Part shown: positions 5,469-29,862 of the stretch, in pieces | Numbering within the stretch: position 1 is the stretch's first letter | How the letters are laid out: the number at the start of each line of letters is the position of its first letter | DNA from: Candidatus Latescibacterota bacterium | Lineage (GTDB): Bacteria > Latescibacterota > UBA2968 > UBA8231 | NCBI GenBank assembly: GCA_016187725.1 | Contig: JACPJE010000068.1 | Span: 1,049 to 65,048 of the forward strand | DNA length: 64,000 bases | Reading direction: 5' to 3' | The notes under the pieces: model-generated | What the model was told of the DNA's origin: nothing | Seen by the model: the letters and a program-made list of their open reading frames with translations, nothing else | Databases searched by the model: none | Position numbers and translations under genes: made by a program

Positions 5469-6551
5469 TCACCTTTCTGGGGCGAAGCGCTGCAGATCGA
5501 AGGGGGGCCGGCCCGTCGCTATCCAGTCGGCCAGCAGCTGGCCGGTGAGGGGTCCCAGCAGGACGCCGTTCTTGTAGTGGCCGGCAGCGACAAAAACCCT
5601 GGGCTGGGCCTGGAGAGGCCCCAGGTGGGGCCGGCCGCCCTTGGGCTTGGGCCGCAGCCCGGCGCGCTGCCCCAAAAGGCGGGCCGGCAGGTCCAGCACC
5701 TGGCTGAACAGGTGGATAAAATGCTCGGCGGCCTGGGGGGTGGTCTGGGTATCGAAGCCGGTCTCCTCCACTGTGGCCCCGGCGAGGATCTCCTCCCCGG
5801 CAGGCACCAGGTGGATGCCCTGGTGGCGCAGCACATGGCGCAGCTCGGTTCCCCCGGTGAAGCGGCAGTGCTGGCCGCGCACCGGCCGCACCGGCAGGCT
5901 CAGGCCCTGGTGCTGGGCCAGTTCGCCGGTCCAGGCGCCAATGGCCAGCACCAGGAAATCGGCGCGGTGCTCGCCGGCGCGGGTGCGCACCCGGACACCC
6001 TGGCCTTGCTGGGCGAATTCCTCGACCCCTTCGCCCAGGCTGAGGCGGGCCCCCTGCTCTTGGGCCGCCTGCAAAAGGGCACGGGAAAGGAGTTCGGGAT
6101 CCACGCGCTGGTCGGTGGGAAAGTAGACCCCGGCCAGGACCCGGGCGGAGAGGCTGCGCTCCAATTGGCGCAGGTCTTCCCCTTCCACCCACTCGGCCGG
6201 ACAACCGCGCTCCAGGTTGAAGGCCAAAAGCTGGCGGGCCTCGGCGATTTCGGTCTCGCTACAGGCCAGGTCCACCCCTCCCAAGGGACGCCAGCCCACG
6301 TCGATGCCGGTCTGGTCGCGCAGGCGGGCGGCTAGTTCGGCGTGCAGGGCGTGGCCCTGGCGGTAGAGTTGGGAATAGGGATCGTCCCCCCCGTTGAAAT
6401 GGGTGAGCACCCCCAGGGAGGCACAGGTGGTGGGAGAGGGAAAGGGGCCGGGGTCGAGGATTTGGACACTGAAGCCGCGCCCGCTCAGGTAGTAGGCCGT
6501 TGACAGGCCGACCACCCCGGCGCCGGCGACCAGCACCTGCGGGGCGGCCAT
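5469..6551 (-). CDS. FAD-dependent oxidoreductase, glycine oxidase/D-amino-acid oxidase family
   Basis: GAGVVG Rossmann motif, 'PVRPVRGQ', 'AGLRP', 'AGHYKNGVLLGP'. Confidence 0.85.
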   Translation of the reverse strand: MAAPQVLVAGAGVVGLSTAYYLSGRGFSVQILDPGPFPSPTTCASLGVLTHFNGGDDPYSQLYRQGHALHAELAARLRDQTGIDVGWRPLGGVDLACSETEIAEARQLLAFNLERGCPAEWVEGEDLRQLERSLSARVLAGVYFPTDQRVDPELLSRALLQAAQEQGARLSLGEGVEEFAQQGQGVRVRTRAGEHRADFLVLAIGAWTGELAQHQGLSLPVRPVRGQHCRFTGGTELRHVLRHQGIHLVPAGEEILAGATVEETGFDTQTTPQAAEHFIHLFSQVLDLPARLLGQRAGLRPKPKGGRPHLGPLQAQPRVFVAAGHYKNGVLLGPLTGQLLADWIATGRPPFDLQRFAPER

Positions 6552-6555
6552 GGCC

Positions 6556-7734
6556 TCAGCGGCCCACGATGGGCGGCAGGTGGGTCACCGGACAGGCGCG
6601 GGGGGCCTTGACCGAATAGCCCATGTCGCCCAGCACGCAGCTGATCTGGGCTTCGAGTTTGAGCAGGTACTGCTGCTCCTCGGCGCTCATCAACTGGCGG
6701 GGCGGGCCCACCTCGAAGCCGCGCACCGCCACCCCGGTCTTGAACCCTTCCGGGAAGTTGACGCCCAGAAGCATGAGGTTGATCAGGTCGAGGATGCGGT
6801 ATTGCAGGATGCGGGCCTGTTCCACCTGGCCGGCCAGGGCCTTGTTGTAGATCTCCACGATCACCTCGGGGATGATCCCGGAGGTGGCGATGGTGCCGCC
6901 GCTGGCCCCCATCATCACCGAGGGAAAGAGGATCTCCTCGCAACCCACCAGCACCACGTAATCGGGCCGCTGCGCCCGCAGCCGGTGCATGGTGTTGATC
7001 AGCCGGGGCAGGTCGCGGCTGGAGTCCTTGGTGCCCATGATGTGCTCGTAAGGCAATAACCTTTCCATCAGGTCCAGGGGCAATTCCTGGGTGAACTGGG
7101 GGATATTGTAGAGCAGGATGTCCAGGGGCGACTGGCGGGCGATCTCGGCGAAGTACTCGAAGAGGCTGGTGTTCGACATCTTGTAGTAATAGGGCGGCAC
7201 CAGGGAGATGGCGTCCACCCCGATGGAGGCGTAGAACTCGGCCATCTGCAGCACGTCGCGCAGGTTGGCCTCGCTGGCCCCGGCCAGGATGGGCACCCGG
7301 CCTTTGTTCACCTGGCAGATGAGCTTGACCACGTCCTGGCGCTCCTGCCAGGAGAGGCGCACGAACTCCCCGGTGCTGCCGTTGGGATAGAGCCCGTGGA
7401 TGCCGGCCTGGATCAGCCATTCGATGTAGCGCTCCATCTCCGGGTAGTTGATCTGGTCCTTTTCGTTGAGGATGACGATGTTGGGGCAGAGGATGCCCTT
7501 GAATTCCCGCTTGCCCGAGGTGGACGCCTTCCGGGGTGGCAGCACGGATGCCGGGGCCGGGGCGATGGCCGTCTCGGAGGCGGCGCGGCGCTGCACCTCT
7601 ACCCCGTGGGCGCGCAGGTAGTCGAGGGCCGAGGGGGTGAGTTTGGAGTGGGGGCAGAGTTCGAGGGCCTTGTCGTTGCCCAGCCGGGCTTCCAGCACCT
7701 GGGCGGTGATCACGGGATCGTCTAGGCGGACCAT
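6556..7734 (-). CDS. DHDPS/NAL-family class I aldolase with ~70 aa N-terminal extension
   Basis: GSTGEF, 'VPPYY', 'LLYNIPQFT', Schiff-base Lys in 'GTKDSS'; N-terminal module plus Pro/Ala linker. Confidence 0.85.
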   Translation of the reverse strand: MVRLDDPVITAQVLEARLGNDKALELCPHSKLTPSALDYLRAHGVEVQRRAASETAIAPAPASVLPPRKASTSGKREFKGILCPNIVILNEKDQINYPEMERYIEWLIQAGIHGLYPNGSTGEFVRLSWQERQDVVKLICQVNKGRVPILAGASEANLRDVLQMAEFYASIGVDAISLVPPYYYKMSNTSLFEYFAEIARQSPLDILLYNIPQFTQELPLDLMERLLPYEHIMGTKDSSRDLPRLINTMHRLRAQRPDYVVLVGCEEILFPSVMMGASGGTIATSGIIPEVIVEIYNKALAGQVEQARILQYRILDLINLMLLGVNFPEGFKTGVAVRGFEVGPPRQLMSAEEQQYLLKLEAQISCVLGDMGYSVKAPRACPVTHLPPIVGR

Positions 7735-7746
7735 CTGCTATCCTCT

Positions 7747-8889
7747 TCAGTGAACCAGGCGTTCCGTCAGTTGGGTGTAGGGATGGGGAATCAGGTGGAT
7801 GGCCACCAGCTCGCCGTATTTGGCCGCTTCCACGGCCCCGGCATCGAGGGCGGCCTGTACCGCGGCCACGTCCCCGCGGATGGCGCTGGCGGTCAGAAAG
7901 TAGCCCACCTTGTAGCTGCCTTCGTATTCGACATTGGCGGCCTTGAGCATCAGGTCCATGGCCTTGGCCAGGGCGATGCTGCTGCGGGTCTCGATCAGGC
8001 CCAGGGCCCGGCCAGCGCTGGGGCGTTCCACGCTTGGGCCAGGGGCGGCGAAGCAGGCCATCACTTCGGGGGCGGGGCGCGAGACCAGCCGGGCGGCATT
8101 GAGTTCGCCCACCTGGCGGGCGGCGGCAGTGCCGGCGTCCACCGCGGCCTGCACGTCGTCGATATTGCCTTTGAAGAGCAGGGCCACCCGGCCACCGGTG
8201 CCGATATTGATGCGGCTGATCTCCACCTCGCCGGATTTGACCGCGGCGTCGCCGGCCCCCACCATGGCCACGTACCCGGTGGTCTCTATCACGCCCAGGG
8301 CCCCGCTGGACCGGGCCTCGCCCGCCGGGGGCGGGGGCAACATCCGGCCCAGGCCAGATGCCGGCTGGGGGATGAGCAGGGTGGCGATGACGTCTCCGCA
8401 CTGGGCAGCGGCCAGGCGGCCCGCCTCCAGAGCGGTCTGCACCGCGGCCACGTCGCCGCGCGCGATCACGTGCACCAGGGCCCCGCCGATGGCGGCCCAG
8501 CCCTCGATGCTGACGGCCGCGGCCTTGGCCATGGCGTCGGCCCCCCCGATCAGCGGGGTCAGGCCCCGGGTCTCCAACAGCCCCAGGGCCTGGTTTCCCA
8601 CCGGGCGGTCCTGGGAGCCAGTGCGGTGGGGCATGCCCTCCAGGCCCTCGGGCCGGGCGATCACCTCGGCGCTGATCAATTCCCCGTACTTGGCGGCTTC
8701 TTCCTGGCCGGCGCGCAGGGCGGCCTCCACGGCCGCCACCTCCCCTTCGACCAGGACCGTGACCCAGGCCGAGCCCACCCCGTGCCGGCCGCAGATCTCG
8801 ACCTGGGCGGCCTTGACCATCACGTCGGCGGCCCCCACCAGGGCGGCCATGCCGCGCGTTTCGAGAATGCCGAGGGCTGGGGAACTCAT
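7747..8889 (-). CDS. BMC shell protein with four tandem BMC domains (380 aa)
   Basis: ALG(I/L/V)(L/I)ET repeats at aa 5, 101, 197 and 295, each with a DxxxK edge motif and a G(D/E/N)(V/I)xxV motif; AGGA RBS before the ATG at 8889. Confidence 0.9.
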   Translation of the reverse strand: MSSPALGILETRGMAALVGAADVMVKAAQVEICGRHGVGSAWVTVLVEGEVAAVEAALRAGQEEAAKYGELISAEVIARPEGLEGMPHRTGSQDRPVGNQALGLLETRGLTPLIGGADAMAKAAAVSIEGWAAIGGALVHVIARGDVAAVQTALEAGRLAAAQCGDVIATLLIPQPASGLGRMLPPPPAGEARSSGALGVIETTGYVAMVGAGDAAVKSGEVEISRINIGTGGRVALLFKGNIDDVQAAVDAGTAAARQVGELNAARLVSRPAPEVMACFAAPGPSVERPSAGRALGLIETRSSIALAKAMDLMLKAANVEYEGSYKVGYFLTASAIRGDVAAVQAALDAGAVEAAKYGELVAIHLIPHPYTQLTERLVH

Positions 8890-8897
8890 CTGGGGTC

Positions 8898-9452
8898 CTA
8901 GCGCCGGCCAAATGCCTGCAGCACCTGCGGCACCGGCTGGGCGATAAAGGCGGAACCTAGAAACTTGGACGAAGCGGCGGCCAGTTCGCGGCCCACGGCC
9001 AGGGCCTCCTTGACCGCGCCCACCTCCCCTATGATCAGGGAGCAGACCACCCGGTTGTGGACGGTGAGCACGTTGGCCACCTCCACTTGGGCGGCCTTGA
9101 CCATGCGGTCGTCGGCCAGCACCTGCAGGCCGTAGCCCTGGGTTTCGAGCAGGCCCAGGGCGCCGGAAACGGGTGCTATCTCCTTTTTGACAGGGACGGT
9201 GACGTAGTTGAAGCAGGCGGGTTCGGGCTGGTTGAGGGCGGCGGCACTCACCTTCTTGGATACCTGCCGGGCAGCTTCCTCGCCGCTGCGCAGGGCCGCG
9301 GCCACGGCGCTGATCGAACCAATAAAAAAAACCGTGGTGAACCCACCGATGGAATCCCAGCCCAGCAACTCCACCTCGGCGCTCTTGCAGGCCGCATCCG
9401 CCGCGACGACGATGCCCGCCACCCCTTCGACCTCGACCATGCCGATGGCCAT
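8898..9452 (-). CDS. Divergent two-domain BMC shell protein (BMC-T-like)
   Basis: 'AIGMVEVEG..AADAACKSA' and 'ALGLLETQG..DDRMVKAAQV'. Confidence 0.85.
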   Translation of the reverse strand: MAIGMVEVEGVAGIVVAADAACKSAEVELLGWDSIGGFTTVFFIGSISAVAAALRSGEEAARQVSKKVSAAALNQPEPACFNYVTVPVKKEIAPVSGALGLLETQGYGLQVLADDRMVKAAQVEVANVLTVHNRVVCSLIIGEVGAVKEALAVGRELAAASSKFLGSAFIAQPVPQVLQAFGRR

Positions 9453-9464
9453 GGACGCCCCCGT

Positions 9465-9929
9465 TCAGCGCGGTCCCAGGCGGCTCATCACCTGGGCGGC
9501 GATCTGGCGCACCAACTCCTCGCTCACCCCGGGCAGGACCGCCGCGCTCTTGTGGCGGTTGCAGCCCTGGCAGGCCGGGCCGCACCCGCCCTGGGCCTGG
9601 TGGATGGCGCACTGGCCGCAGGAGGCCGGCTCGACAAAGCCAGATCCGAACTCCTCGGTCTGGCAGCCGCAGGCCCGGTCGGGGTGGTCGCAGCGGCCCT
9701 CCTGCACCAGACTGGAGGGGGTGAGTTCGGGGATGAGGCCGGGAGAGGGCGCTGGTGCGGCTGGCGCGGGCCCGCGTATCACCTTGAGGCGGTGCTGGCG
9801 GATATAGTCCCAGCCCGTGGGGGTGATCACCGATCCGGGGAGCAGGCGCAACTCCTCCTGGCCCTGGTGCTGCTGGCGCAGCAGGGCCTCGGTGATGATC
9901 GGGGCGTCGAGATGGCAGGCCCTGGACAT
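9465..9929 (-). CDS. BMC-associated Cys-rich protein with putative C-terminal encapsulation peptide
   Basis: N-terminal 'IITEALLR...VITPTGWDYIRQH' module, 8-Cys segment, amphipathic 'VSEELVRQIAAQVMSRL'. Confidence 0.7.
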   Translation of the reverse strand: MSRACHLDAPIITEALLRQQHQGQEELRLLPGSVITPTGWDYIRQHRLKVIRGPAPAAPAPSPGLIPELTPSSLVQEGRCDHPDRACGCQTEEFGSGFVEPASCGQCAIHQAQGGCGPACQGCNRHKSAAVLPGVSEELVRQIAAQVMSRLGPR

Positions 9930-9938
9930 GGCGCTGGC

Positions 9939-10202
9939 TCAGTTCAGCTTTTCCCTGAGCACCTCTACCGGGCGGGGGATCACGTGCACGCTGCGCAGTT
10001 CGCCCACCTTCTGGGCGGCCTGGGCCCCGGCGTCCACTGCGGCCTTGACCGCGGCCACGTCGCCTTCGACCATCACCGCCACCAGGCCTGCGCCCACCCG
10101 CTTCTGGCCGGCAAAGCTCACGTCAGCGGTCTTGAGCATGGCGTCGAGGGCCTCCACCACGCAGACCAGGCCTTTGGTTTCGACAATACCCAGTGCTTTC
10201 AT
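9939..10202 (-). CDS. BMC-H shell protein (PduA/EutM-like)
   Basis: 'ALGIVETKG...DAMLK...[13 protein letters not shown]...HVIPRP'. Confidence 0.95.
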
Positions 10203-10217: not shown

Positions 10218-10781
10218 TCAACTCAGGAAGAGGTCGATGGTTTCGTCGCTGGGACGGGGGATGAGGTGGCGCGACACCAGCTCGCCCACCCGTTCGGCGG
10301 ATTCGGCCCCGGCGCTGACCGCGGCGCTCACCGAGCCCACGTCGCCGGTGACCAGCACGGTGATGTAGCCGCCGCCGATCTCGCGGATCTTCACCACCTC
10401 GACGCTGGCCGCCTTGCTCATGGCGTCGCTGGCTTCGATCACCCCGGTGGCGCCCCGGGTCTCGATCATGCCCAGGGCCCGCACACCCTTGGGGGCCTCG
10501 CCCCGGGCAGCGCGCGAGGGCAGGATGGCGCCCAATTCGCCGTGCGGGCGGGGGATCACGTGCACGCTGTGCACCTTGCCCACCTTGGCCGCGGCCTGGG
10601 CCCCGGCGTCCACCGCGGCCTTGACCGCGGCCACGTCCCCCTGGCAGAAGACGGTGACCAGGCCGGCGCCCACCTTGTCCCAGCCCAGCAGGGAGACACT
10701 GGCCGCCTTGCTCATGGCGTCGCCGGCTTCGATCAGGCCAGCCAGCCCCACCGTCTCTACCATTCCTAATGCTTCTGCCAT
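10218..10781 (-). CDS. Tandem BMC shell protein (two canonical BMC-H-like domains)
   Basis: Two 'ALGM(V/I)ET...DAMSKAASV...GDV...H(V/L)IPRP' units. Confidence 0.93.
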
Positions 10782-10819: not shown

Positions 10820-11482
10820 CTATTTTTCCAGATACACCTTGCGGGCGCGGACCAGGTCCACGGCGTTGCCTTCGTCCGTGTCCAGGTGCACCTCCAGTTT
10901 TTCCTTGCCGCTGACCCGGCAGATCAGCCCCTCCAGTGAGCCTCCCTGCTCGCTTTCGACCACCAGCCGCATCCGGTCGCCGGCTTTGACGCCGTAGTAC
11001 TGGGCTTCGGCGGGGCTCATGTGCACGTGGCGGGCGGCGCGGATCACCCCACAGCGCAGTTCCAGGCCGCCGGAAGGCCCCACCAGGTAGCAGCCGGGAG
11101 TGTCGCGGTGGTCGCCGCTGAGGCGCACCGGCGCGTCTATGCCCAGGAAGCGGGCGTCGGTGAAGGCCAGCTCCACCTGGCAGTACTCGCGCAGGGGGCC
11201 CAGCACCCGCACGTGGGCGATCATCTGCTGGCGCGGACCGAATACCGTGACCGCCTGCTCGGCGGCAAAGGCCCCCTCCTGGTACAGGGGTTTGAGCACC
11301 GTGAGCTGGGCGCCCTTGCCGAAGAGGGTCTCCAGGGCCTCCTGGTTGAGGTGCAGGTGCCTGGCCGAGATGTTGACCACCAGGCGCGGGGCAGCCGGGG
11401 CCGGGGCCACGCCCAACTGGGCCTGGAGGGCCTGGCGCACCAGCGCTTCGATCTGCTGGTGGTCGAGCAATTGGGCGCTCAT
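10820..11482 (-). CDS. pduL: Phosphate propanoyltransferase PduL with N-terminal encapsulation peptide
   Basis: 'ISARHLHL', 'RVLGPLR..QVELA.TD...LGIDAPVRLSG', 'RHVHM', 'HLDTDEGNA'; helix 'QIEALVRQALQ'. Confidence 0.93.
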   Translation of the reverse strand: MSAQLLDHQQIEALVRQALQAQLGVAPAPAAPRLVVNISARHLHLNQEALETLFGKGAQLTVLKPLYQEGAFAAEQAVTVFGPRQQMIAHVRVLGPLREYCQVELAFTDARFLGIDAPVRLSGDHRDTPGCYLVGPSGGLELRCGVIRAARHVHMSPAEAQYYGVKAGDRMRLVVESEQGGSLEGLICRVSGKEKLEVHLDTDEGNAVDLVRARKVYLEK

Positions 11483-11754
11483 CGCGCCTCCCTGTCGAGG
11501 TGTACGTGCTCAGCCCTGGCCAGGATCACCGCGTCCACGGCCAGGGGCGGGTCAAAGGCATTGACGGCCTCGCGGGCCACTTCCACCACCACCAGGTCGC
11601 CCTCGCGCATGGCCTGCCAGGTGGCGCTCACCTCCGGGTCGCCAATGGGCTGCAGGTCTTCGCCGAGATCCTCGATCAGGTGCAGGGCCTTGCCCGTGTA
11701 CGGGGCAATGGCCTTGGAGAGGACCACGGTGCCGATGACCCGCGACAGTTTCAT
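11479..11754 (-). CDS. BMC vertex protein (EutN/CcmL family), divergent
   Basis: 'MKLSRVIGTVVLSK...GDLVVV...VDAVILA'. Confidence 0.8.
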   Translation of the reverse strand: MKLSRVIGTVVLSKAIAPYTGKALHLIEDLGEDLQPIGDPEVSATWQAMREGDLVVVEVAREAVNAFDPPLAVDAVILARAEHVHLDREAR

Positions 11755-12125: not shown

Positions 12126-13559
12126 TCAGGTGATGCGGAAATAATCCACCAAACTGCAGCGGCGCTGGCGGGTGAAGGTGCGGGCCGAGGTCAACCCCTC
12201 TCCGGTGGGGCCGGCGATGGAGAAGGTACAGAACCCCTCCCCGCCGATGCCCACCCCGCCGTAGGAAGGCCCGTTCTTGACGAAGATCGTGGTGTCCACG
12301 GCCCTGGCCATGTTGTGCATGTTCTCGATGTTGCGCGAGTGGATGATTGCCGTGTGCCGGTACCCGTGTTCGGACTCGATGGCCAGGCGGATGGCCTGCT
12401 CGACGTTGGGCACCCGGACGATGGGCAGGAAGGGCATCATCTGCTCTTCGTGGACGAAGGCGTGGCTGGCGTCGGTCTCGCCGATGAGCATCAGCACCTG
12501 CTCGTCGAGGTGGATGCCCACCCGCTGGGCCAGCACCGAGGCGTTGCGGCCTACCAGCTCGCGGTTGACCACCAGTTCGCCCTTGGGACTTTTGACAAAG
12601 GCGTGTTTGGCCAACTCCTCGATCTGGGCGGGGGTGAGTTCGTAGCCGCTGTGGCGCACCAGGCGCGCCTTGAGTTCGTCGGCCACCGACTCGATCACAA
12701 AGACCTGCTTCTCGCCGATGCACAGGATGTTGTTGTCGAAAGCAGCCCCGGCGATGATGTCGCGGGCGGCCCGGTCGATGTCCGCGGTCTCGTCCACCAC
12801 CACCGGCGGGTTGCCCGGCCCGGCGACGATGGCCTTCTTGGGACTGGCCATGGCGGCCTTGGCCACCCCAGGGCCCCCGGTCACCAAAAGCACCCGGATG
12901 CCCGGATGGGTGAAGAGCTGCTGGGCGCTTTCGATGGTGGGGGTCTCGATGGCGGTGATCAGATCGGCCGGCCCGCCCACCCGGGTGATGGCTTCGTTGA
13001 GCAGGCGCACCGCCCAGGCCGAGACCTTCTTGGCCGCCGGGTGCACGTTGAAGACCACCGAGTTGCCCGCGGCGATGATGCTGATGGCGTTGTTCACCAG
13101 GGTGGGCACTGGGTGGGTGGAGGGAGTCACCGCGCCGATCACCCCGTAGGGGGCCATCTCCACCACGGTCAGGCCGTGGTCACCGGTCCAGGAGATGGCC
13201 TCCAGGTCCTCGACGCCCGGGGTCAGGTCAGCGGCGGCGTAGTGCTTGCGGATCTTGTGGTCCACCCGCCCCATGCCGGTCTCCTCCACGGTCATGCGGG
13301 AGGATTCCTCGGCCTTGCTGCGGATGGCCTGGCGGATGGCCTCGATGATCTTGCGGCGCTCCTCCAGGGTGCCCCCCACCAGGGCCCGCTGGGCGGCGGC
13401 GGCGGCGGCCACGGCCTCGTCCACGGTCTGGAAGACCCCGCCCGCCCCGCTCCTGCCCTCGCTGAAGCTGAGGGTGTTGCCGGCCACCACCCGGCCCACC
13501 ACCTCCTGGACGATGCGGCGGATCTGCTCTTCGCTGACGTTGTGTGCCACCCCGTTCAC
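12126..13559 (-). CDS. eutE: CoA-acylating aldehyde dehydrogenase (EutE/PduP family) with encapsulation peptide
   Basis: 'PYGVIGAVTPSTHP', 'TGGPGV', 'GPGNPPVVVDETAD', 'FDNNILCIGEK', 'GPTGEGLTSARTFTRQRRC'; N-terminal 'SEEQIRRIVQEVV'. Confidence 0.93.
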   Translation of the reverse strand: MNGVAHNVSEEQIRRIVQEVVGRVVAGNTLSFSEGRSGAGGVFQTVDEAVAAAAAAQRALVGGTLEERRKIIEAIRQAIRSKAEESSRMTVEETGMGRVDHKIRKHYAAADLTPGVEDLEAISWTGDHGLTVVEMAPYGVIGAVTPSTHPVPTLVNNAISIIAAGNSVVFNVHPAAKKVSAWAVRLLNEAITRVGGPADLITAIETPTIESAQQLFTHPGIRVLLVTGGPGVAKAAMASPKKAIVAGPGNPPVVVDETADIDRAARDIIAGAAFDNNILCIGEKQVFVIESVADELKARLVRHSGYELTPAQIEELAKHAFVKSPKGELVVNRELVGRNASVLAQRVGIHLDEQVLMLIGETDASHAFVHEEQMMPFLPIVRVPNVEQAIRLAIESEHGYRHTAIIHSRNIENMHNMARAVDTTIFVKNGPSYGGVGIGGEGFCTFSIAGPTGEGLTSARTFTRQRRCSLVDYFRIT

Positions 13560-13679: not shown

Positions 13680-13958
13680 CTATTTCTTATTGATGGGAAG
13701 GATGCTTTCGAGACTGGGGTGCGGCCGGGGGATGACGTGGACCGCCAGCACCTCCCCCACCCGGCGGGCAGCGACCTGGCCGGCCTCGGTGGCGGTCCGC
13801 ACCGAGGCCACGTCGCCGCGCACCAGCGCGGTGACCAGGCCCCCGCCGATCTGCTGCCAGCCCACCACCGCCACGTCGGCGGCCTTGACCATGGCGTCCA
13901 TGGCCTCGATGAGAGCCACCAGCCCGCGGGTTTCGATCATGCCCAGTGCGTCGCCCAT
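13680..13958 (-). CDS. BMC-H shell protein
   Basis: '[29 protein letters not shown]...HVIPRPH', the C-terminal part of the listed 344 aa ORF; ATG at 13958. Confidence 0.93.
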
Positions 13959-14090
13959 GCTGCCCTGTTTTTGATTTGAGAAAATAGGGGGGGGTACAGG
14001 CAAAGTCAAGACGCCCTCCCGCCTTGACATCCCTTGGCGCCGCACCCTATTTTCGCCTGCACTTTGACCCCGACACTGAGGAGAATAGCG

Positions 14091-14894
14091 ATGCGCATCA
14101 TCCGCTTTATCGACGAGCAGGGCCAGACCCGCCTGGGCGAGGAAAGCGGCCCGGGCCAGGCCGCGGTGCTCAAGGGGGATTTGTTCGGCAGACTGGAGCG
14201 CAGCGGCCAGAGCGCCGCAGTCAAAAAGCTGCTGGCCCCGGTGACCCCTCCCAATATCCTGTGCATCGGCCTGAACTACCGCGAGCACGCCGCCGAGTCG
14301 GGGGCCAAGATCCCCGATTACCCGGTGCTCTTCATGAAGCCCAACACCGCCCTCAACAACCCCGGGGACCCCATCCGCCTGCCGGCCTGCCAGGTCGATG
14401 CGGAGGTGGATTACGAGTGCGAATTGGCCGTGGTCATCGGCAGGACCTGCCGCGACGTGCCCGAAGCCAAGGCCCTGGAGTACGTGCTGGGCTACACCGC
14501 GGCCAATGACGTGTCGGCGCGCACCTGGCAGATCAAGCGGGGCGGCGGCCAGTTCGTGCGCGGCAAGGGCTTCGACACCTTCTGCCCCCTGGGGCCGGCC
14601 CTGGTCACCGCCGACGAGATCCCCGATCCCCAGGCCCTGCGGCTCAAGACCCTCCTCAACGGCAAGGTGATGCAGGACCACACCACCGCGGACATGATCT
14701 TCCCGGTGGCGCACCTGGTCAGCTTCCTCAGCCAGGACACCACCCTGCAGCCGGGCACGGTGATCCTCACCGGCACCCCCCAGGGCGTGGGCTTCGCCCG
14801 CAAGCCCCCCGTCTGGCTGCAGCCCGGCGACGAGGTGGTCATCGAGGTGGAGAAGATAGGAAGGTTGGTGAACCTGGTGGGGGCTAGTCGATAA
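14091..14894 (+). CDS. Fumarylacetoacetate hydrolase (FAH) family protein
   Basis: '[10 protein letters not shown]', '[11 protein letters not shown]', 'NDVSAR', '[12 protein letters not shown]', 'TGTPQGVG'; GAGGAG RBS. Confidence 0.92.
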
Positions 14895-15138
14895 TCCCCA
14901 CGATCACGCTGCGCACCGCCGGGGCCTTGACCCCGGTCACTTGGCCCCCGGCGATGCCCGACTCGCTGACCACCACCTGGCTGCCGATGCCGGCGCCCAC
15001 CCCGTCGATGGCCAGCTGCATGGGCACCGTGGGATCATTCACACCCTCCAGGCCGGAGACCACCAGGATCTTCCGGCCTTCGAGGATGGGGTGCTTGACC
15101 GTGGTCACCACATGCCCGATGACCTTGCACATTCTCAT
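14884..15138 (-). CDS. BMC vertex protein (EutN/CcmL family)
   Basis: '[23 protein letters not shown]...[13 protein letters not shown]...IVGIID'. Confidence 0.88.
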
Positions 15139-29665: not shown

Positions 29666-29862
29666 ATGAAGAGGACGGCCATCGGCCTGATCGAACTGTC
29701 CAGCATCGCCGCCGGCTTTGCCGTGGCCGACGTGTTGCTCAAGGCCGCCATGGTGGAACTGCTGATCAACCGCACCATCTGCTCGGGCAAATACCTGATC
29801 CTCATCGGCGGGGAAGTGGCGGCGGTGGAAGCCAGCCTGGCCGCCGGGGTGGGGGTCGGCGG
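29666..29862 (+). pseudogene. Truncated PduT-like BMC shell gene (most of the first domain only)
   Basis: 'AIGLIELSSIAAGFAVADVLLKAA..V...TICSGKYLILIGGEVAAVEASL'; similarity stops abruptly. Confidence 0.8.

Follow-up and report, generated by a model that had tools for sequence, protein, structure and literature searches.

The 64,000-nt stretch of contig JACPJE010000068.1 analysed here (assembly GCA_016187725.1, Candidatus Latescibacterota bacterium; below, the window) carries two adjacent genes for shell proteins of a bacterial microcompartment (BMC): P0001, with four BMC domains in a single chain (D1 to D4), and P0002, with two (d1 and d2). A sequence-only reading of the window had described four domains at a period of 96-98 aa in 7747-8889, two more in 8898-9452 and an 8-nt gap between the genes; it had also quoted six differing pore loops and reported a DxxxK edge motif in every domain. 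All of these points hold up, and both genes, for which that reading gave no strand, lie on the minus strand. The Pfam domain count for PF00936 is four in P0001 (252.3 bits, E 2.2e-76) and two in P0002 (108 bits, E 2.2e-31), with a cut-off of 24.5 bits, so that the family match of both proteins is far beyond chance. The A-[LI]-G motifs that open the domains of P0001 stand at residues 5, 101, 197 and 295 (periods of 96, 96 and 98 aa), and D-x-x-x-K is found at residues 22, 118, 214 and 312 of P0001 and at 19 and 115 of P0002. Every quoted pore-loop string is present in the translations, the gap is confirmed on the sequence, and both reading frames are free of internal stops. In a six-frame search of the whole assembly, all six domains are collinear with positions 1-75 of the PF00936 model (1-70 in one of them), and therefore none is circularly permuted. 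The pore loop of d2 is atypical in that it has no Gly pair.

Table 1. The shell-protein pair, its domains and the neighbouring genes. Boundaries of D1-D4, d1 and d2 are approximate and were derived from motif positions.
Feature	Coordinates	Strand	Description
Four-domain BMC shell protein P0001	7747-8889, including stop codon 7747-7749	-	380 aa, 38.4 kDa
Domain D1, ~residues 5-80	8650-8877	-	pore loop GRHGVGSAW; edge motif DVMVK
Domain D2, ~residues 101-176	8362-8589	-	pore loop GWAAIGGAL; edge motif DAMAK
Domain D3, ~residues 197-272	8074-8301	-	pore loop RINIGTGGR; edge motif DAAVK
Domain D4, ~residues 295-370	7780-8007	-	pore loop GSYKVGYFLT; edge motif DLMLK
Spacer between P0002 stop and P0001 ATG	8890-8897	-	8 nt
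Two-domain BMC shell protein P0002	8898-9452, including stop codon	-	184 aa, 18.9 kDa
Domain d1, ~residues 2-76	9225-9449	-	pore loop GWDSIGGFT; edge motif DAACK
Domain d2, ~residues 98-173	8934-9161	-	pore loop NVLTVHNRVVC; edge motif DRMVK
FAD-dependent oxidoreductase, DAO family, ThiO-like	5469-6551	-	PF01266 219.7 bits; NCBIfam ThiO 204, below 250.8
DHDPS/NanA-family class I aldolase-like enzyme	6556-7734	-	392 aa; PF00701, 190 bits, residues 78-365
Cys-rich protein P0123	9465-9929	-	154 aa; directly upstream of the pair
Canonical single-domain BMC-H	9939-10202	-	87 aa; PF00936 90.1 bits
Canonical two-domain BMC-T	10218-10781	-	187 aa; two PF00936 stretches, 174.7 bits; second two-domain shell protein of the locus
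PduL-type phosphotransacylase	10820-11482	-	PF06130 220.3 bits
BMC-P vertex protein	11479-11754	-	PF03319 34 bits
Aldehyde dehydrogenase	12126-13559	-	NCBIfam PRK15398 665.5 bits, cut-off 403; PF00171
BMC-H domain at the C-terminus of a 344-aa open reading frame	13680-14714	-	PF00936 on residues 256-331; true start uncertain
BMC-P vertex protein	14884-15138	-	PF03319 68.4 bits

We also compared P0001 with NCBIfam. It scores below the cut-offs (in brackets) of CcmO at 250.5 (270), EutK at 148 (218) and PduT at 77.5 (250), and above those of CsoS1 at 183 (166) and EutM at 239 (133); the latter two models are 93-97 positions long, and their cut-offs are passed because the scores of four domains add up. 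P0001 is a BMC shell protein by every criterion that we tested, yet it lies outside the domain counts of both BMC-H and BMC-T. P0002, judged by architecture and taken on its own, would count as BMC-T(s).

In the passages of the 2021 BMC catalog that deal with shell architecture, hexagonal tiles are made of six one-domain copies or three two-domain copies, with six- or threefold symmetric pores and faces, and the types named are BMC-H, its permuted form and, with two domains, BMC-T of three kinds (PMC8217296). The 2014 taxonomy, in its passage on the subject, treats BMC-T as a fusion of two domains (PMC4207490). Term searches of the main text of these two papers gave no passage on a four-domain chain or, in the catalog, on any chain of more than two BMC domains, though their supplementary tables may use another label, and full-text literature searches for a four-domain BMC protein found no paper. 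The architecture of a four-domain chain beside a two-domain chain is undescribed in the searchable literature.

P0001 belongs to a sizeable family. A word-indexed search of 5.8 billion proteins gave 1,228 matches at E <= 1e-10, and the 120 matches listed are 366-393 aa long and 54-100% identical to P0001 over 93-100% of the query. The source names among these listed matches are metagenome-assembled genomes of Gemmatimonadetes or Gemmatimonadota and of Latescibacteria or Latescibacterota; in the passages seen of the 2021 catalog, Gemmatimonadetes are named only under fragmented 'FRAG' loci (PMC8217296). Three metagenome-assembled genomes that GTDB assigns to the genus of the window (loci L001, L002 and L003) bear titles naming Gemmatimonas, Handelsmanbacteria and Latescibacterota; since three phylum-level names occur within a single genus, source names are a poor guide to the taxonomic range of the family. 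Within the phylum, P0001 orthologs (E <= 1e-40) are present in 83 of 168 genomes, including 64 of 75 in the family of the window; two other families have 16 of 22 and 2 of 31. P0002 orthologs (E <= 1e-30) are present in 84 of the 168, in the same genomes and with the same family tallies save for one extra genome, G096, an assembly 85% complete in which the P0002 match is truncated at a contig end.

We then looked at the arrangement of the two genes in loci drawn from genome contigs and metagenome contigs. The N-terminus of a P0001 ortholog is contained in 84 loci, of which at least four are duplicate records and one is the window itself. The 2+4 adjacency, whose conservation in homologs the sequence-only reading had left to be checked, recurs throughout: a P0002 ortholog, at least 45% identical, lies directly upstream in all 75 loci with at least 560 nt of upstream sequence, and the other nine have either a partial P0002 ortholog at the contig end (seven) or almost no upstream sequence (two). 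A four-domain gene without its partner, which would speak against a shared tile, was looked for in the 84 loci and the 168 genomes and was not found. Among 73 extracted pairs, 67 of them distinct, the junction between the genes measures from -14 to +14 nt in 72, and 38 pairs overlap; the sole outlier, locus L045 (genome G098), has 175 nt between the two shell genes. Short or overlapping junctions of this kind are the usual signature of translational coupling and so suggest it here. In the window, AGGA overlaps the P0002 stop codon, 6 nt ahead of the P0001 ATG; a purine-rich 4-mer lies 4-18 nt before the P0001 start in 43 of 61 distinct junctions, a count to which we give no weight. These results show that the pair is inherited as a unit. 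One genome, G097, has two copies of the pair on different contigs, with a contamination estimate of 7%.

The sequence-only reading had offered, as an alternative to two proteins, a 1-nt shift that would fuse the genes into a single-chain hexamer. Such a six-domain gene could have been split by sequencing error or could be joined by programmed frameshifting, and the shortness of the spacer speaks for it, as does the fact that the P0001 frame stays open across the whole P0002 gene, forming an open reading frame of 621 aa (7747-9612, minus strand). Read by eye, however, the upstream part of this frame is rich in Arg, Gly and Pro and has no BMC-like motif, and we take the extension to be an accident of GC-rich sequence. 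The homologs do not bear the proposed shift out: each of the 73 extracted pairs has a stop at the end of the two-domain gene, and there is no fused pair among them. The second gene is offset in frame from the first by 0 in 9 pairs, by 1 in 30 and by 2 in 34; with every possible relation represented, there can be no conserved frameshift that joins the genes.

The junction was also checked against Logan contigs of four public runs, compared over 8700-9100. One contig, which may be the source, matches the window exactly at the junction. Two more, from a strain 95-99% identical, span the interval with a 2-nt insertion in the spacer and with substitutions, one of them in the spacer as well; these strain differences in the 8-nt gap are as expected of a non-coding spacer. 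Finally, a HMMER profile built from nine individual BMC domains encoded in the window was run over 1.84 billion cluster representatives. Because full-sequence scores add over domains, the proteins with most domains rank first. The top match is a 387-aa four-domain ortholog, none of the 150 best matches has more than four BMC stretches, and the four-domain architecture forms a single family among them; natural six-domain fusions, another point raised at the outset, are absent from these 150. A search for longer homologs of P0002 gave none at E <= 1e-5, but the same search also missed the four-domain family, so we give this result no weight. With the stops, the frame offsets, the strain insertion and the profile search all against it, we reject the single fused or frameshifted gene, which we regard as extremely improbable.

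The same 150 matches hold three-domain PF00936 proteins of 286-330 aa, in at least 11 separate 50%-identity clusters (P0124-P0129, P0131, P0132, P0138, P0147 and P0148). Pfam confirms three PF00936 stretches in all eight of those scanned, and none of the six positions of the pair is specifically related to their domains. Our literature searches found no paper on a three-domain BMC chain, which could form a twofold pseudohexamer. Five further matches with three stretches (P0130, P0133, P0134, P0137 and P0139) proved to be fragments or frameshifted copies of the four-domain family.

To compare the six domains with one another, we aligned 40 orthologs each of P0001 and P0002. In every one of the six domains, the Asp and Lys of DxxxK show no variation; the edge Lys of this motif is used in tile-tile contacts. 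Each pore loop also carries invariant residues of its own: G34, G39 and W42 in D1; G130, W131 and G135 in D2; G232, G233 and R234 in D3; G324, K327, G329 and T333, around the Tyr-Phe pair, in D4; G31, W32, S34, G36, G37 and T39 in d1; and L129, V136 and C137, around His-Asn-Arg, in d2. L378 and the C-terminal H380 of P0001 are invariant as well. A maximum likelihood tree (quick IQ-TREE search, 90 columns) was computed from the six domains of 20 genomes, a diversity-chosen subset of the 40 distinct genome pairs, together with four canonical domains of the window. Each of the six positions forms one clade in this tree, with support of 90-100 in the Shimodaira-Hasegawa-like approximate likelihood ratio test (SH-aLRT), and d2 has the longest stem. 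Across genomes, domains at the same position are on average 51-62% identical, versus 24-38% between positions within a genome. In the identity matrix D1, D2 and D4 are nearest to the canonical domains, and d1, d2 and D3 are derived. The six domains are separate, anciently diverged and individually conserved types.

Since a tile needs six domains, four does not divide six and a private two-domain partner is always present, the simplest reading is that the two proteins complete one tile between them. One chain of P0001 and one of P0002 would close a single flat ring of ~57 kDa, a 1:1 heterodimeric pseudohexamer that would tile into shell facets by its six edges, like a hexamer or a BMC-T trimer. 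The ring would have no rotational symmetry. Six conserved loops, all different and including a Tyr-Phe and a His-Asn-Arg loop, would line its pore, and the binding sites on each face would be unique. This 4+2 ring is our leading candidate, though unproven, and we consider the chances that it is right to be evenly balanced.

Several observations weigh against it. The adjacency, the coupling, the co-occurrence, the six conserved domain types and the invariant Lys residues fit other 1:1 assemblies just as they fit the 4+2 ring, and co-occurrence with adjacency is in any case expected of any two genes in one conserved organelle operon. P0002 has an ordinary BMC-T architecture and could trimerise alone, while the canonical BMC-T and BMC-H proteins of the locus could also complement the four-domain chain. 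At least two other assemblies give a 1:1 stoichiometry or need none, and the closure of the ring is purely what we infer. Nor does the kinship of the six domain types help, as neither the tree nor the identity matrix gives a clean A-B-A-B-A-B pattern.

Covariation between the domains favours neither side. We computed mutual information with average product correction over the 67 distinct pairs, concatenated, which have an effective number of 34. In this small sample, the top inter-domain couplings fall on every one of the 15 domain pairs and are not enriched for ring neighbours. Of the top 60, the contacts specific to the ring account for 7 (D4-d1), 4 (D2-D3) and 1 (d2-D1); neighbours that are certain in any case account for 7 (D1-D2), 7 (D3-D4) and 5 (d1-d2), and three non-neighbour pairs for 6, 5 and 5.

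In a second assembly, D2 and D3 do not share a ring, and the covariation, in this small sample, does not favour contacts between them. Here D1-D2 and D3-D4 of one chain would sit in two neighbouring rings, each set of three chains giving its D1-D2 halves to one ring and its D3-D4 halves to three adjacent rings, and P0002 would form ordinary trimers. The outcome would be a three-colour hexagonal lattice of (D1D2)3, (D3D4)3 and (d1d2)3 tiles, stapled by the D2-D3 linker at a 1:1 stoichiometry. The arithmetic works, in that three four-domain chains make twelve domains and thus two rings; the 1:1 output of coupled genes fits equally, and the six invariant edge motifs are what an in-plane model requires. 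The D2-D3 linker is also conserved and Pro-rich (LLPPxP). The linkers themselves, however, give no sign of a bridge. With linkers counted from xP to the following ALG, P0001 has three internal ones of 20-24 aa, compared with 23 aa in P0002 and 24 aa in the canonical BMC-T of the locus, so that the D2-D3 linker is of the same length as the intra-ring linkers of both proteins and of the canonical BMC-T. Its conserved Leu-Pro matches the ordinary C-terminal tail of BMC domains, and nothing marks it as a link between tiles. To our knowledge, covalently stapled tiles have no natural precedent, and it is hard to see how a fixed lattice would fit a closed polyhedral shell that contains BMC-H and BMC-T as well. 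We consider tethered tiles unlikely.

The edge motifs bear on a third assembly as well. Because the two ends of a BMC domain lie on the same face, stacked rings could be connected by a short linker: P0001 would then form a homotrimer in which (D1D2)3 sits on (D3D4)3, and P0002 would form an independent trimer. Such a double disc would be the covalent analogue of the double-layered BMC-T(dp), whose members CsoS1D and CcmP are twelve-domain assemblies of tandem domains. Natural double-stacked trimers of these two proteins are on record in the passages of the catalog that treat them, which describe permuted domains and a separate trimer for each ring (PMC8217296). Circular permutation thus marks the stacked proteins known so far, whereas all domains of P0001 and P0002 are non-permuted. 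Moreover, shell edges are needed in only one of two stacked rings, but the 40 orthologs keep the Asp and Lys of all four P0001 motifs without exception, and the obligatory partner P0002 would be left without a reason. Invariance at all four edge motifs and the non-permuted domain order disfavour the stacked disc, which we think improbable.

Gene order and rates of divergence speak to a fourth possibility, in which P0001 is completed by the canonical BMC-T or by two BMC-H subunits and P0002 acts separately. The operon does supply the parts, with a canonical BMC-T gene and at least two BMC-H genes, and mixed hexamers of the paralogs CcmK3 and CcmK4 have reportedly been observed. In the 14 loci with long flanks, however, the order of the BMC-T, BMC-H, BMC-P and aldehyde dehydrogenase genes varies by lineage, and the canonical BMC-T and BMC-H genes shift position relative to P0001, which P0002 never does. 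P0001 and P0002 also diverge at similar rates, faster than the canonical BMC-T: identity across relatives is 45-91% for P0001 and 46-92% for P0002, compared with 67-94% for the BMC-T. Because the canonical genes move while P0002 stays, and because of these divergence rates, completion by BMC-T or BMC-H is disfavoured, and we give it little credence.

Among structures already solved, the best match to both proteins is 6NER, a synthetic tandem fusion of BMC-H (120 bits to P0001, 91.9 to P0002). It shows that canonical BMC-H domains tolerate head-to-tail fusion; unlike the pair, it is engineered, with two domains of identical type in 213 aa. The 52 PDB chains that match P0001 in sequence reach 213 aa at most, a length that accommodates two BMC domains, and we found no solved structure of the four-domain architecture. 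The heterohexamers of CcmK3 and CcmK4, which are single-domain paralogs of beta-carboxysomes, resemble the 4+2 ring in that a tile comes from more than one gene and its sixfold symmetry is broken. The proposed ring would differ in having a fixed one chain of each kind and six distinct domains. Similar in build are the BMC-T(s) proteins, such as PduT and CcmO, which form a hexagon-shaped tile and like P0001 and P0002 are covalent tandems of non-permuted PF00936 domains; PDB chains of PduT match residues 99-273 of P0001. As described in the relevant passages of the catalog, BMC-T(s) have two domains per chain and form threefold homotrimers (PMC8217296), in contrast to the four domains and dedicated second chain of P0001.

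The genes around the pair (Table 1) make up, by their predicted products, an aldehyde-oxidising metabolosome encoded in a minus-strand operon. The genes by which we recognised a shell locus, namely two PF03319 genes and those for an aldehyde dehydrogenase, PduL, BMC-H and BMC-T, lie on one strand within 8 kb. The model matched by the aldehyde dehydrogenase, PRK15398, is one that we take to be of the EutE/PduP kind. The enzymes, a DAO-family flavoenzyme, a DHDPS-family aldolase or lyase, the aldehyde dehydrogenase and PduL, suggest a route that starts with oxidation of an amino or hydroxy acid to a 2-oxo acid, whose cleavage would give pyruvate and an aldehyde trapped by the shell, and the DHDPS-family aldolase is likely to be the signature enzyme of the organelle. 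This aldolase is encoded directly downstream of the pair, has an N-terminal extension of ~77 aa and matches every NCBIfam model below its cut-off. The three closest relatives (L001-L003) align with 210-217 aa of the open reading frame at 13680-14714, at 72-81%, which suggests that this shell protein is extended at its N-terminus by at least ~120 conserved aa that match no family. Two further PF00936 matches lie apart from the locus, one ~20 kb off at ~29678-29860 on the plus strand (63.5 bits, model positions 1-61) and the other on another contig (C83:36311-36538, 91.1 bits).

The immediate neighbours of the pair are held in place with it. The block of the 154-aa protein, the two-domain gene, the four-domain gene and the aldolase is intact in 11 of the 14 long loci; one of the exceptions has no aldolase there, and in two the upstream sequence is without any other locus genes. 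Taken singly, the aldolase follows the four-domain gene in 13 of the 14, and P0123 adjoins the pair in 12, the other two being those without locus genes upstream. In locus L044 (genome G100), the oxidoreductase comes directly after the four-domain gene, and no aldolase match was found in the 13-kb locus.

P0123 has no Pfam or NCBIfam family, and its scores in an atlas search are <= 0.85. Its first ~55 aa, however, are 36% identical to the N-terminal extension of the aldolase (BLASTP, E 1e-8), and in both proteins this ~55-aa domain is followed by a linker rich in Pro and Ala. A search of the whole assembly finds the domain in these two genes only, and no Pfam family matches it; its role may be targeting to, or docking in, the organelle. 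Eight Cys fall within residues 80-123 of P0123, a cluster that suggests a metal or Fe-S site, and the protein ends in an amphipathic stretch, SEELVRQIAAQVMSRL, a tail that resembles BMC encapsulation peptides. As a speculative extension of the 4+2 ring, the ~55-aa domain that the aldolase shares with the Cys-rich protein might dock on the unique tile. The joint claim, an asymmetric tile with a six-loop pore and a surface that docks the shared domain of the two flanking genes, is more tentative than the ring by itself, and we would put it somewhat short of an even chance.

A conserved four-domain chain with an obligatory two-domain partner fits neither the 6x1 nor the 3x2 scheme of shell tiles. 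The family is not rare, with more than 1,200 database matches and a presence in half of the sampled genomes of the phylum, and the organelle around the pair, with its DHDPS-family aldolase, is uncharacterised. Were the chains to tether neighbouring tiles, they would represent a new principle of shell reinforcement. If instead P0001 and P0002 close one ring, the result would be a natural tile in which every position is genetically addressable, with a single pore whose six walls all differ and, on each face, attachment sites present in one copy. Shell engineers pursue this kind of tile by domain fusion, and a synthetic two-domain fusion, 6NER, is already in the PDB.

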